Below the pieces are notes generated by a model. That model was not told the DNA's origin, searched no databases, and saw only the letters and a program-made list of their open reading frames with translations. Positions 7,786 through 11,776 of a stretch of 64,000 nt of DNA are shown here, in pieces. Origin of the DNA: a virus; IMG/VR virus record IMGVR_UViG_3300017766_003354, positions 82,906 to 146,905 of that record; one strand, written 5' to 3'. Both the position numbers and the translations under genes were made by a program. Numbering within the stretch: the first letter of the stretch is position 1; each line of letters opens with the position of its first letter.

Positions 7786-7968
7786 GAAATTCTCAAACTC
7801 TGTTTCTCCTGTCTCAATCATTTTCAAAACATAAGGAACGCAATACTGACATTTTGAACAGCAGAGGTTCTTTTCTTTTAGTTCTTCTAGGGACTCTTTT
7901 TGGAGAAGAATTTGGATTTCCGAGAATGAAATATTATGGCAGATACACTTCTTTATCTGAGAGGGCAT
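7774..7968 (-). CDS. BFD-like [2Fe-2S] protein
   Basis: CICHNIS...CCSKCQYCVP (CxC...CxxC) spacing. Confidence 0.65.
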   Translation of the reverse strand: MPSQIKKCICHNISFSEIQILLQKESLEELKEKNLCCSKCQYCVPYVLKMIETGETEFENFLKI

Positions 7969-9956
7969 GCGCCATTTTCACACTCCAGTCCATCAATCAA
8001 TTCCGAACCAACATCAAACATAGAATCAATAGGCTTGACTCTTTTGATTTGTCGGTTGTATTCCTCTTCCGAGATTTCTTCCAAAGGAGCTTGGACGAAC
8101 CCGTGCTTGGAGTGCATTAGGAAGCTGAGAGTCTTCATATTTTTATCATAATTCTCGCTCATCCATGTCTTAATCGCGCCAAGCTCTTCTGGCTTATAAT
8201 AAACCGTTACCGAAACAGAATTATCTGCCCAAATTTTCTGAAGCTTTTTGGTAAGTTCGAGTTGATCTACTGCCCCCATTTGATCAGCCGTAATTGTGGA
8301 AGGTTCAAATTCGCACGGGAATTCAATAACAGTCATTCCATAATCTTCACTGCTGTCAAAGCGCCGAACGTATTCGGTCTTGTAGCCAGCGTCACGACAA
8401 AGTTTAACCAAAGGATCAGAACTGGCCATTCTCACCCTACGAATGAGATAACGAGAATAGGCGGGATGAACCCCAGAAGTCGCCCCTCCAAGAAGGGATA
8501 GTGTGCCAGAAGGTTTCACTGTCGTCAATTTGATGCTTTCGGGGATCGCTAATTGCATGCTCCAAGACTTATCGAACATTTTAAGCTCTCTGTAGCACTC
8601 GTCCAACCACTCCAACTTATCCAAAGCCTGACAAACACCAGTAACTCCTAGGCCAATGCGGCGATTCTTTTTGACAATTTTATCTGTCTTTTCGTAAAGC
8701 GCGGGCAAATTCCATACGGCTTTTTGAGTCTTATAGAGAAGTTTGGCGCAATCAATTAACTGTTCTTTTGACTCGATATTATTGAGATACAATTCTGAAA
8801 GATTGCAGGCTTCTCCGTCTGCCAAAGTAATTTCAGCGCATGGATTTACGCCCTCACAGTTGTCCTTTTTCTCTTCTCCAATTCTGCCAAATTTTTGGCA
8901 AAGTTTCATATTGATGAATCCGTAAGGTTCTCCCTTAGCCATTCCAGTTTTTGGATCAATAGTATATCCATTCTCCCAAACCTCATTGCTGATATGCGCG
9001 TAAGAATCAGCCTCAATGCTATTGTTTGATTTGCCTCTCCAATTTGGGATATCTCCATCGCTCCACTTTTTGGCCCTTAAATAAAGGTAGTCGTCAGGAT
9101 CGCCAATTGCTATCTCTGCGCTACGTCTGACATTTCCCGCGACAACAATATCTCCAATGATATTATTAATATCCAAGACATCAACAGATCTTAGCTTCTT
9201 GCCTTCGCGATTGGTCAAAACTCCAGCAATAGATTCAAGACCCTCTACTAGAATTTGTGGACCGCTGGCCGTTCCTCCAAATCCTTGAATTGGTTCTCCA
9301 GCGCCTCTAACCAAAATAGTAGAATACGAAAACGACTTGCCTGTAACAAAGAACGACTGAATAACCTTTCTAAGCAATTCCACCCATCCTTGTCGAGAGT
9401 CTGGGACAATAAAATCTGCGTCTTTTTCTTTATTATGGGTAATGTGAACGCCGCGTTTTACTCTCGGAAGTTCGTGGATGTCTTCGCGGCGAACGGAAAA
9501 GCCAACTCCTCCACCAAGCATTAAATGTTCAAATACAAAACAAAAATCCTCGATCTCTCTCATCGAGACATACCAGCAATTAAGAAGGGACGCAAGGCCA
9601 AACCTATCCACCGTAGAGGTCCCCAACTGCCACAGCATTCGGCCAGCAAAATTACACTTGAGATTAAAGACCAAATCAAAGAGTCTTTGAGCTTCTTCTG
9701 GAGAATATTTTGCGCCAATCTTTTGTGCTCCATTAATACAACGGGCAACTGTCTGCCACCATTCTTCGCTTACTCCATCACAAATCTTTCTCGCATAAGT
9801 CCTCTTATAAACAATATAGCCTAGTCCATTGAATCCCCATTTAGGGTTTGTTCCTTCATAAGGAGCAAGAAATTCCCTTGGCAGGATCTCTGAATAACAA
9901 TGCTTGTCCTTATATGCCCGCTCCTCTTGTAAAACCTCGTCCTTGATCATAGTCAT
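7953..9956 (-). CDS. nrdJ: Class II (B12-dependent) ribonucleotide reductase, monomeric RTPR type
   Basis: GRMLW, LLNCW, GGGVGF, GNVRRSA, NPCAE, CNL, TTVKPSGT, C-terminal CENGACPLR. Confidence 0.93.
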   Translation of the reverse strand: MTMIKDEVLQEERAYKDKHCYSEILPREFLAPYEGTNPKWGFNGLGYIVYKRTYARKICDGVSEEWWQTVARCINGAQKIGAKYSPEEAQRLFDLVFNLKCNFAGRMLWQLGTSTVDRFGLASLLNCWYVSMREIEDFCFVFEHLMLGGGVGFSVRREDIHELPRVKRGVHITHNKEKDADFIVPDSRQGWVELLRKVIQSFFVTGKSFSYSTILVRGAGEPIQGFGGTASGPQILVEGLESIAGVLTNREGKKLRSVDVLDINNIIGDIVVAGNVRRSAEIAIGDPDDYLYLRAKKWSDGDIPNWRGKSNNSIEADSYAHISNEVWENGYTIDPKTGMAKGEPYGFINMKLCQKFGRIGEEKKDNCEGVNPCAEITLADGEACNLSELYLNNIESKEQLIDCAKLLYKTQKAVWNLPALYEKTDKIVKKNRRIGLGVTGVCQALDKLEWLDECYRELKMFDKSWSMQLAIPESIKLTTVKPSGTLSLLGGATSGVHPAYSRYLIRRVRMASSDPLVKLCRDAGYKTEYVRRFDSSEDYGMTVIEFPCEFEPSTITADQMGAVDQLELTKKLQKIWADNSVSVTVYYKPEELGAIKTWMSENYDKNMKTLSFLMHSKHGFVQAPLEEISEEEYNRQIKRVKPIDSMFDVGSELIDGLECENGACPLR

Positions 9957-9961
9957 GTCTT

Positions 9962-9967
9962 TTACAC
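9962..9967 (-). promoter_or_regulatory. GTGTAA motif (putative phage-specific promoter)
   Basis: 5 nt upstream of nrdJ ATG; recurs before many genes. Confidence 0.6.
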
Positions 9968-10039
9968 ATTCTAAGGCAAGAAAAAGATTTTAGCAAGAAC
10001 TTTCTCAAAGAAAATTCTCGTCTGCGCCAGCCTACTATA

Positions 10040-10320
10040 TGAAATCGAGCATCGCGAGATTTCACACATTGTAAACGCGCAACTGCATCGTATTTACAGA
10101 GTCAATTGTTGTAGAATTTAATAAAGAATAGCTGAGTCTAATTATTCTGGAATGGAGAAATCAAACGAAACTTTTGCGAATCCTGATTTCGCAATGCAAG
10201 GATAATTAGCGAAGCTTGCGTAGAACAAACGAAACTTTGGTTTACTGCTGTTCAAGCAAATTGGAAAGGCGAAACGGTAATTTAAATCGGGACAGGCGAA
10301 ACTTTTGCGCATCCGTCCCG
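10040..10320. repeat. Array of about 7 hairpins, four with CGAAAC in the loop; candidate ncRNA/leader or origin
   Basis: Stems GAAATCA/TGATTTC (10157-10190) and CGGGAC/GTCCCG (10288-10320) both enclose CGAAACTTTTGCGnATCC. Confidence 0.6.
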
Positions 10321-10331
10321 CTTCTGTTTCA

Positions 10332-10359
10332 ATTATACAGACAATTTATTTCGTGTCAA
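10332..10359 (-). promoter_or_regulatory. Consensus sigma70 promoter reading into hairpin array and nrdJ
   Basis: TTGACA-16 nt-TATAAT. Confidence 0.75.
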
Positions 10360-10487
10360 GCTTTTTTTTTCAAAAATCTTCCATTATTTTCATTTCGCCG
10401 TCTTCCTTCTTAAATCTTCCACAAAATAAAGATTATACTGGGCGACCCAACGACTGTTTGAATCGCTTGTTATAGTGTAAAAAAGAC

Positions 10488-10516
10488 TTGACTTTTCATA
10501 ACTCGTTGACTATTAT
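10488..10516 (+). promoter_or_regulatory. Sigma70-type promoter for dut operon, leaderless
   Basis: TTGACT-17 nt-TATTAT, 6 nt before ATG 10523. Confidence 0.7.
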
Positions 10517-10522
10517 AGCACA

Positions 10523-10957
10523 ATGTTGACGGCAACCGTTTCAAACCTTGATGGAATTCGACCTCCCGCGCACGCGGGCGATGTTGGATTTGACCTTATC
10601 GCAGCTTCGGAACCTCGATTCGTTGGCAATCCTCCGTCTATTCAATATGTTGAATATGATACAGAAGTAAGAATTAAGCCTCCAAAGGGCCACTTCTCTC
10701 TAATTTTCCCACGATCATCTATTTCTAATTATACTTTAGCTCTAGCTAATAGCGTCGGAGTTATTGATGAAGGCTATCGTGGAAACATAATAATTAGATT
10801 TCGCGTAGTCTATCAAACTGGAGAATTGAAATTTTATAAAAAGGGAGACAAAATTGCCCAACTGGTGTTTATGCCATCAGTTATCCCTACTCTTGTTGAG
10901 GGGGACGTAGATGAAACAGAACGAGGAACTGGTGCTTTTGGAAGCACGGGAAACTAA
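10523..10957 (+). CDS. dut: Trimeric dUTPase
   Basis: GFDL, PRSS, GVIDEGYRG, KIAQL, RGTGAFGSTG. Confidence 0.95.
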   Translation: MLTATVSNLDGIRPPAHAGDVGFDLIAASEPRFVGNPPSIQYVEYDTEVRIKPPKGHFSLIFPRSSISNYTLALANSVGVIDEGYRGNIIIRFRVVYQTGELKFYKKGDKIAQLVFMPSVIPTLVEGDVDETERGTGAFGSTGN

Positions 10958-10969
10958 TATTACAGTAAT

Positions 10970-11170
10970 ATGATTGGAAATCTAATAAGCAAAACAATTA
11001 AAATAGTAACCCTACCTCTCGACGCAGCGAATGTCGGTCTAGACATCGCAACTGGAGGGAGCGGCTCAAAACGCAGCCGAACAAACTATAACGACTGTAG
11101 CCCACTAGGAGATCTCGAACGCTTGCGTGACAAAATTGCAGAAGCGGCCAAAGAAATTGACGACAACTGA
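10970..11170 (+). CDS. Hypothetical protein (66 aa)
   Basis: In-operon ORF. Confidence 0.65.
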   Translation: MIGNLISKTIKIVTLPLDAANVGLDIATGGSGSKRSRTNYNDCSPLGDLERLRDKIAEAAKEIDDN

Positions 11171-11173
11171 ATT

Positions 11174-11776
11174 ATGGAAATTATCGCTGTATCAGGAATC
11201 GCCCGTTCTGGCAAAGACACATTCGCAGATTGCCTTGCGAAAGAAGTTTCCGACATGTTCCCCAACCTTAAAGTCCGAAGGGAGAGTCTAGCTTCCTTTC
11301 TCAAAGATGAAATGGCTGGGTTCTTGATGGAGAAATTCAATAAAGACATTTACTCGCTAGAAGGAGAAGAGAAGGAAAAGTTTCGACCTTTGCTTGTGGC
11401 GTATGGATTCGCAAAACGGTTGGATACAAAAGGAACCTACTTTACTTCTCTTCTCCAAAAAAAGATGGAGACGGAGAACGCTGACATATATATCATTTCT
11501 GATCTTCGATATGCAGAATCAGAATCAGATGAACTTTCGTGGTTAAAGAATCAAGGAGGCAAGCTTATCCATATTCGTCGCTACAATATAAAAAACGGCC
11601 AAAAACAATACATCAAACCCCCAAATTCTGACGAAAAGAAGAACGATCCTCTTCTCGAAAAGAATGCCGACTTCCATATTGATTGGGAATCTGCTTCTTC
11701 TCCACAAGAACTAAATAAAGAGGCTTCTAGATATTGCCAAAACTTCATCCATCAGAACATCAAGCTTTTCCTATGA
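11174..11776 (+). CDS. Deoxynucleoside monophosphate kinase (T4 gp1-like)
   Basis: IIAVSGIARSGKDT P-loop, RPLL, IISDLRY..E, GGKLIHIRR. Confidence 0.8.
   Translation: MEIIAVSGIARSGKDTFADCLAKEVSDMFPNLKVRRESLASFLKDEMAGFLMEKFNKDIYSLEGEEKEKFRPLLVAYGFAKRLDTKGTYFTSLLQKKMETENADIYIISDLRYAESESDELSWLKNQGGKLIHIRRYNIKNGQKQYIKPPNSDEKKNDPLLEKNADFHIDWESASSPQELNKEASRYCQNFIHQNIKLFL

Follow-up and report, generated by a model that had tools for sequence, protein, structure and literature searches.

Conserved loops on changing stems: a candidate structured leader RNA before ribonucleotide reductase genes of uncultured phages

We analysed the last 64 kb (64,000 nucleotides, nt; hereafter the window, WIN) of the 146,905-bp IMG/VR virus record IMGVR_UViG_3300017766_003354 (positions 82,906 to 146,905; 40.5% G+C, 123-bp end repeat), with attention to the 566-nt gap (9957-10522) from which nrdJ, a class II ribonucleotide reductase (RNR) gene, and dut, the dUTPase gene, diverge. 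The gap contains a perfect-consensus promoter aimed at nrdJ, an array of four hairpins that carry the same six-letter word in their loops, and a further hairpin, H_A, which recurs in every one of seven related uncultured phages (contigs designated by L-numbers). Stems around the conserved loops show compensatory changes, the region has no conserved open reading frame (ORF), and it stands directly before a reductase gene. The best reading of these sequence features, which we hold to be about as likely as not, would be a structured leader RNA, so far uncatalogued, that acts in cis on the reductase operon. A literature search returned no description of this leader element.

Promoters and the hairpin array upstream of nrdJ

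The strongest promoter in the gap, here called distal, was a perfect sigma-70-type consensus sequence (Table 1), as an earlier note on this DNA had stated, and it pointed to nrdJ; RNA synthesis from it is predicted to start at about 10325. The A/T-rich tract next to it presumably resembles an UP element. The separate motif that the note had assigned to nrdJ itself was likewise recovered, as a proximal promoter. Since its hexamers and 17-nt spacing were kept in L328 and L331 while the spacer sequence varied, this promoter is probably real; its hexamers were also recognisable in L005, L274, L273 and L276, the last being called with a 16-nt spacer. Initiation from the proximal promoter would yield a nearly leaderless nrdJ message.

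Downstream of the distal promoter, the four hairpins, the other stems (including one at 10125-10148) and the loops described earlier were all present in the sequence. Each of the four array hairpins enclosed one CGAAAC on the plus strand, that is, GTTTCG on the nrdJ-sense strand, in a loop of 16-21 nt. The copies were spaced 27, 40 and 64 nt apart and had only 6-18 nt of sequence in common, and two of them extended to CGAAACTTTTGCGnATCC with 17 of 18 positions identical according to the repeat finder. Over the 369-nt leader, the four sense-strand copies compare with 0.12 expected, and the antisense strand had none. The inner arms of hairpin 4 (10157-10163/10184-10190) flank a 20-nt loop and extend to 26-nt arms (10138-10163/10184-10209) that are 81% complementary. 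Random 6-nt windows of the genome were flanked by arms pairing perfectly over 5, 6 or 7 bp or more at frequencies of 0.218, 0.064 and 0.018, respectively; given the observed stems of 7, 5, 5 and 6 bp, the joint chance probability is therefore about 5e-5, an estimate that allows loops of up to 26 nt and uses parameters picked after the fact.

Table 1. Features of the nrdJ-dut gap and its surroundings (window coordinates unless a contig or the genome is named)
Feature	Coordinates	Strand	Remarks
Distal promoter TTGACA-16-TATAAT	10332..10359	minus	promoter scan, 12/12 consensus match
A/T-rich tract GAAGATTTTTGAAAAA..AAGC	10362..10383	minus	just upstream of distal -35; invariant in alignment of window, L328 and L331
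Hairpin 1, CGGGAC-GGAUGCGCAAAAGUUUCGCCU-GUCCCG	10288..10320 (arms 10288-10293/10315-10320)	minus	5 nt past predicted RNA start
Hairpin 2, weak AAUU/AAUU(U) stem	10258..10283 (arms AAATT/AATTT, 10258-10262/10279-10283)	minus	second GUUUCG copy; plus-strand CGAAAC at 10270-10275
Hairpin 3, GAACA-..CCAAAGUUUCGUU-UGUUC	10223..10253 (arms 10223-10227/10249-10253)	minus	
Long hairpin 4	10138..10209	minus	inner stem GAAAUCA/UGAUUUC, loop GGAUUCGCAAAAGUUUCGUU, outer arms CUAAUUAU../..AUAAUUAG
Hairpin UGUAAA..UUUACA	10070..10098	minus	follows 75-78% A+T linker (about 10085-10145)
H_A	10037..10067	minus	stem GAAAUC/GAUUUC, 2x2 UC/UC internal loop, inner G-C and C-G pairs, small apical loop
H_B, AGAAUUUUCU..AGAAAGUUCU	9996..10018	minus	followed by U-rich tract; overlaps proximal -35
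Proximal promoter TTGCTA-17-TAGAAT	9968..9996	minus	promoter scan
GUGUAAA box	9960-9972	minus	conserved; after proximal promoter
nrdJ	7953..9956	minus	class II (B12-dependent) RNR; Pfam RNR_Alpha, RNR-II_ins_dom, Ribonuc_red_lgC
dut promoter TTGACT-17-TATTAT	10488-10516	plus	promoter scan; divergent from nrdJ
dut, dUTPase gene	10523-10957 (ATG at 10523)	plus	leaderless-looking
Promoters ending 6-7 nt from ATG	window 10488-10525; genome positions 19187, 21900, 23963 (minus strand)		
Intein-bearing nrdJ	L005:2699-6694; L274:3001-6048; L278:3001-6093; L283:3001-6048		

The only sizeable ORF in the leader was one of 56 amino acids (aa) at 10142-10312, and the motif copies were read in three frames. 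A small protein from this ORF was rejected as a candidate, with no Pfam match and no counterpart in any relative. Other consensus promoters of the genome, and the dut promoter, ended 6-7 nt before an ATG, so that a 370-nt untranslated RNA would be exceptional in this genome; the short distances suggest leaderless mRNAs elsewhere. A Shine-Dalgarno signal preceded 13% of the 136 longest genes versus 12% of random positions, that is, without enrichment, and together with the predicted leaderless mRNAs this is a clue that the host may not rely on Shine-Dalgarno pairing. In the window, L328 and L331, the terminator scan detected no canonical terminator from the array down to the reductase gene. Upstream of the distal promoter, a small hairpin (TTGGGTCGCCCA(A/G), 10437-10451), with a T-rich run behind it on the nrdJ-sense strand, had a terminator-like look and was kept almost unchanged in L328 and L331.

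Two pairing ideas found no footing. An anti-start pairing of UUUACA (10071-10076) with the UGUAAA before the ATG, which in L328 amounts to a 10-nt perfect match, was dropped: across seven genomes, RNAduplex scores compared with dinucleotide shuffles had p values from 0.07 to 0.85. CGAAAC sites across the phage genome, considered as pairing targets, had no pattern near gene starts.

Conservation across related phages and reductase types

Relatives were sought by NrdJ scans of IMG/VR and JGI metagenomes, followed by protein searches with contig look-ups. The scans returned many reductase homologues, L005 alone having the divergent dut arrangement; the NrdJ protein search gave L274 (identical to L275), L276 (identical to L277), L278 and the truncated L273, and deoxynucleoside monophosphate (dNMP) kinase, at 83% identity, led to L328 (identical to L330) and L331. 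Further dNMP-kinase homologues (P0122 and P0125-P0131) had identities of 70-81%. The divergent dut/reductase layout and gap of the window thus recurred in seven related uncultured phages. The nearest were L328 and L331, with leaders 58% identical to that of the window and 80% identical to each other. IMG/VR searches with dut and dNMP-kinase queries added no further useful relatives, and blastn of the gap against isolated phages gave no matches; the closest NrdJ in an isolated, named phage, Maribacter phage Panino, was only 47% identical. A 12/12 promoter with a 16-nt spacer, aimed at the reductase gene, was found at the corresponding place in all seven full-length relatives, L328, L331, L276, L005, L274 and L278 among them.

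In the window, L328 and L331 alike, GTTTCG occurred four times on the sense strand only, compared with 0.11-0.12 expected. Counted from the start, the copies lie at +24, +51, +91 and +155 in the window, at +21, +41, +80 and +91 in L328, and at +21, +42, +91 and +157 in L331, and in the alignment they form identical islands within variable loops. Hairpin 1 became CGAGAC/GUCUCG in L328 and L331, a G-C to A-U compensatory change, with GGA..GUUUCG kept in the loop and the helix 100% paired. For hairpin 2, L328 and L331 kept the GUUUCG copy, at +41 to +51, conservation here being seen for the word and not the stem. Hairpin 3 was represented by AACAAAU/AUUUGUU in L328 and AACAAAAG/CUUUUGUU in L331, around one or two GUUUCG copies, with one double-sided change noted by eye. 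The inner stem of hairpin 4, GAAAUCA/UGAUUUC in the window, read GAAAACA/UGUUUUC in L328 and GAAAACAAA/UUUGUUUUC in L331; its helices 3-5 were paired in 92-100% of cases, and seven pairs were changed on both sides relative to L328 and L331. Three of the four window hairpins are conserved, and their stems differ. When hairpin 1, the long hairpin 4 and H_A were scored jointly over these three sequences, 93.8% of cells were paired and 11 of 38 pairs were changed on both sides, a score that none of 500 shuffles reached, while slid registers gave 0-1 such changes. The suggestion in the earlier note that one loop on different stems reflects selection on structure withstood the refuting condition given there, since promoter, loop word and hairpins were kept in relatives with compensatory changes.

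H_A (10041-10063, loop UCGC..GCUC), which had been listed as a stem at 10040-10064, was the most conserved element and was present in every one of the seven relatives. Its outer stem is 6-11 bp long and unrelated in sequence among the nine copies of alignment A3 (GAAAUC, AAAGUC, AGAUAUUAU, AGAUAUUCU, AGAAAUUAU, UUUAAUUAC), and inside it follow a UC/UC internal loop, two inner pairs (G-C or A-U, then C-G) and an apex of 2-4 nt. Across the nine copies, 97% of cells were paired and 9 of 11 pairs were changed on both sides; none of 500 shuffles reached this score. A covariance model of H_A (R1) found this locus alone in each of the records searched whole (G000 and the L005 and L276 records), and IMG/VR pattern scans for H_A returned the L005 contig only. 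The distance from the end of the H_A loop to the proximal -35 was 53-56 nt in all eight sequences. In the L276 record, two H_A copies lay within its one gap. The second (L276:2616-2650; 10-bp stem, loop TCACTACGTTC) is situated upstream of the distal promoter, behind a weaker TTGAAT-18-TATATT, an arrangement that suggests tandem duplication of a promoter-leader unit. Between H_A and the reductase gene, inspection by eye placed H_B, a hairpin with a U-rich tract, at a matching position in all relatives; the L276 copy alone was called in the terminator scan.

The gene that follows the leader differs among these phages. It is nrdJ in the window, where the 667-aa protein opens a leftward operon; in L328 it is an RNR alpha 25% identical to the window NrdJ; and in L331 it is the class I pair nrdB-nrdA. 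Because a homologous leader precedes three types of reductase gene, it has outlived two gene replacements. In L328 (1-1967), a remnant of the old start, AAAAGACATGGCTATG, was kept beside the replacement RNR alpha, and in L331 (1-1209, compared with window 7953-9956) class I nrdB and then nrdA stand behind the homologous leader.

In the more distant L005, L274, L278 and L276, the 5' regions were shorter or different and had repeats of related words, variants such as GGUUUACG and GGUUACG occurring 2-5 times. L005 carried TACGTG four times (p = 2e-9). L276 carried AAAGTT six times together with GUUUCG, GGUUACG, AGUUCG and AGUUCCG, several of them in hairpin loops, and had a good terminator-like hairpin after three hairpins. 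L278 and L274 had GAAACUU..AAGUUUC palindromes.

Several further observations concern the neighbourhood. The gene order of L283 was as in the window, with a quite different gap (L283:2748-3000) in which H_A was absent and 20-nt A/T-rich direct repeats (ATAATAACTATATAAGAACT, two copies and a partial one) were present. One or two in-frame inteins interrupted the nrdJ genes of relatives (1015-1331 aa; Pfam matches to LAGLIDADG and Intein_splicing), and the window nrdJ was without an intein. Inside the dNMP-kinase gene of the window (11377-11415, plus strand), both motif halves (AAAGTTTCG, GGATTCGCAAAA) occurred about 19 nt apart in swapped order, probably by chance. A tRNA/tmRNA scan of the window found none.

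A proposed leader acting in cis and the competing explanations

The element has the features generally expected of a structured cis-acting leader: a promoter upstream, no conserved ORF, a position directly before a reductase gene and compensatory changes in its stems. We propose that the gap would serve as a divergent control region whose strongest promoter fires at nrdJ. The product would be a non-coding leader, about 370 nt long, whose architecture has been maintained in evolution. From its 5' end, this RNA would comprise a terminal hairpin, four GUUUCG words in hairpin loops, an A/U-rich linker, H_A, the weak H_B with its U-tract, and the second, weaker promoter. The GUUUCG loops and H_A may be binding sites of a host- or phage-encoded RNA-binding factor, which would set the share of strong early transcription that is passed on as translatable reductase operon mRNA; the effect could be read out via read-through at H_B, processing or stability. 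In all, we infer four steps, namely that the RNA is made, that the nrdJ-sense strand is the active one, that a protein is bound, and that binding is read out.

Several results weigh against this proposal. Folding energy was not significant against shuffles on either strand of the leader or in the relatives, with z = -1.26 for the whole minus-strand leader and -0.6 to -1.9 for its parts and the relatives. RNAalifold folded the antisense strand as well, and counts of G-U wobble pairs did not separate the strands, which leaves room for a function in single-stranded DNA or a cruciform. All 11 double-sided changes separate the window from L328 plus L331 and thus represent one lineage split, and the 5' array could not be aligned with L005, L274 or L278, whose repeats differ. 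The fixed spacing of H_A to the proximal -35 would also fit a DNA-level activator site, and the second H_A copy in L276 would be transcribed only from the weaker upstream promoter. Among the neighbours of the element, Pfam and protein annotation recognised no gene for an RNA-binding protein. An unrelated phage fragment with a similar repeat, L009, has the word on the opposite strand relative to its local genes; if the link is real, this would favour recognition at the DNA level.

The earlier note had offered three functions, a regulatory nrdJ leader, a protein sponge or a replication origin. The leader fits best, with no canonical terminator after the array in the window, L328 or L331 and three reductase types behind it; the Csr/Rsm version of the sponge fell away, and what speaks for the origin is position. 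A trans-acting sponge or decoy, which we consider unlikely, would accumulate as a separate, abundant RNA and use its GUUUCG loops to sequester an RNA-binding protein or a nuclease, from host or phage, much as CsrB or RsmZ does; any effect on nrdJ would be secondary. In favour of it, one word stands four times, always in the same sense, in loops whose stems differ, the promoter is a perfect consensus with an A/T-rich tract upstream, and in L276 the first three hairpins followed by GGGAC..GUCCCCCUUUUUU would release an RNA of about 110 nt. However, the window, L328 and L331 lack a terminator after the array, the element always lies directly before a reductase gene, and there are only 4-5 sites. 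The proposed likeness to Csr/Rsm sites did not hold either: the minus-strand loops were said to start with GGAU, which is true of two of the four (10311-10314 and 10180-10183) and not of the other two; the GGA of the first is kept as GGAAU in L328 and L331, that of the second is not, GUUUCG is the word that recurs, and the Rfam models, those of Csr/Rsm included, gave no match.

A replication origin is a slightly weaker candidate still. The repeats would then act as iterons or as single-strand hairpin signals beside an A+T-rich unwinding stretch, and the promoter would activate or prime replication, as in T7 and T4 origins or with ColE1 RNA II. The element does sit at the strand switch of a nucleotide-metabolism and replication block, the hairpins are followed by a 75-78% A+T stretch, and related phages have different repeat sets at the same place (TACGTG four times in L005; 20-nt direct repeats in L283). 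In the GC-skew check proposed earlier, the cumulative curve had its minimum at 122 kb and its maximum at 4 kb. Near genome position 93 kb it changed only in slope, where gene orientation changes too. The window gap and most relatives lacked a DnaA box (TTATCCACA, within 1 mismatch), the output of Tandem Repeats Finder was empty, with no tandem or regularly spaced iterons, no initiator gene was recognised nearby, and a conserved loop on unrelated, covarying stems is unlike double-stranded DNA iterons.

It is improbable, in our view, that the region is a double-stranded DNA operator array, in which a transcription factor that blocks or activates would bind GTTTCG direct repeats downstream of the start and, near -90 relative to the proximal promoter, the inverted repeat formed by H_A. 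The GTTTCG copies share one orientation as direct repeats, and H_A keeps its distance from the proximal -35; binding to double-stranded DNA nevertheless leaves the compensatory stem changes around the repeats unexplained, and the copy spacings (20-66 nt) have no consistent phase. From one relative to another, H_A keeps its spacer and has completely different would-be half-sites, and a kept loop on unrelated stems disfavours a dimeric double-stranded DNA-binding site, for which the opposite pattern is expected. The L009 fragment also belongs to the case for an operator. This unrelated temperate-phage fragment shares the exact 18-mer CGAAACTTTTGCGAATCC (L009:5240-5440, minus strand; record G001:C1:21052-21154) and has three TTTTGCGAATCC copies, one of them in a GGCCG/CGGCC hairpin, after two further TTTTGCGAAA units with an 11-nt period. 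A terminator and a TTGACA promoter flank the repeats, an integrase gene is about 0.7 kb away, and the reversed control pattern gave 0 matches in IMG/VR. On the other side, L009 and the window phage share no protein at BLAST E ≤ 0.01 that might bind the word in both, although the L009 record is only about 33% complete. A search of 185,579 genomes gave at least 120 single matches to the 18-mer, of which the top-ranked look like coding sequence and form no motif cluster, consistent with chance; a 15-mer scan of viral contigs likewise gave single matches only, except for L009. Elsewhere in L009 (6640-7950, minus strand), about 1.3 kb of gene-free sequence held repeated small GC-stem hairpins with GAAG-type loops (GAACGAAGTTC, GCCGAAGGC, GGCGAAGCC, GGGCGAAGCCC).

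Structural punctuation, with hairpins as 5' stabilisers and ribonuclease (RNase) III or E processing sites of an early mRNA as in the T7 early region and with no dedicated partner or sensing, seems to us just as improbable as the operator: a hairpin lies 5 nt from the predicted 5' end, the long hairpin, irregular through mismatches inside its 26-nt arms, resembles RNase III substrates and GGUUU presumably fits a loose RNase E preference, making it a candidate site, but neither one six-letter word kept in four loops across lineages nor the specific internal loop and apical sequence of H_A is explained.

The leader acting in cis on the reductase operon remains the reading we favour. A bolder version, which we put forward tentatively and think doubtful on balance, is that the GUUUCG array and H_A might form a new class of multivalent RNA platform that binds a host or phage protein or senses the state of the nucleotide pool, thereby tying reductase output to a signal whatever the reductase class. 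If true, the platform would be a reductase-specific riboregulator unrelated to NrdR, B12 or 2'-deoxyguanosine (2'-dG) control. How phages control the supply of deoxynucleoside triphosphates is poorly understood outside T4, and a predicted, strongly promoted, structured and uncatalogued RNA that stayed with the reductase while the gene was swapped for two other types points to operon control by a shared RNA element. The same loop word on unrelated stems also provides an experimental handle, through loop versus stem mutants and RNA pull-downs. The family is small and comes from uncultured phages, and the gain would be a better-defined new RNA family and not a new principle.

Comparison with known systems

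The comparison with Rfam proposed in the earlier note (4227 families; cmscan of window 9000-11500 at E ≤ 10 and of six relatives at E ≤ 1) gave no match, including to CsrB, CsrC, RsmX/Y/Z and the adenosylcobalamin (AdoCbl) and 2'-dG/purine families. NrdR operators are tandem 16-bp palindromic boxes at the promoter; with the consensus taken as ACACWATATATWGTGT and up to 3 mismatches allowed, the window had no match, a result that depends on this form of the consensus. A ToxI-type repeat RNA (Type III antitoxin) was also rejected: Tandem Repeats Finder found no tandem repeats of about 34-36 nt, and the stems of the units are unrelated.

With phage origins such as lambda-type iterons, T7 phi1.1 and T4 oriF/oriG, the region shares four dyad repeats beside an A+T-rich stretch, a strong promoter, and a repeat that differs between related phages. 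It departs from them in that its repeats are not equivalent copies but have a common loop on unrelated stems, with no adjacent initiator gene and no skew extremum. Like the 2'-dG riboswitch, the AdoCbl riboswitch and NrdR boxes, it is a conserved non-coding element before reductase genes, independent of their class; unlike them, its 5' half is a variable repeat array and not one conserved aptamer fold, with no Rfam match and no NrdR box. The likeness to CsrB, RsmY and RsmZ lies in a short word repeated in the hairpin loops of a strongly expressed non-coding RNA, expression here being predicted. The word, however, is GUUUCG and not A(N)GGA, there are four sites compared with many in CsrB, and the element is fixed before a reductase gene with no terminator.

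In the lambda nutL/nutR sites (boxA-boxB, recognised with the N protein) and the HK022 putL/putR sites, boxB loops are conserved while stems vary among lambdoid phages. The present element differs in having 4-5 hairpins and 16-21-nt loops with GUUUCG, with no GNRA-like pentaloop, boxA or recognised N-like gene. It resembles nut and put in that all are hairpin RNA elements, here a predicted one, that come soon after a strong early promoter where a long operon begins.

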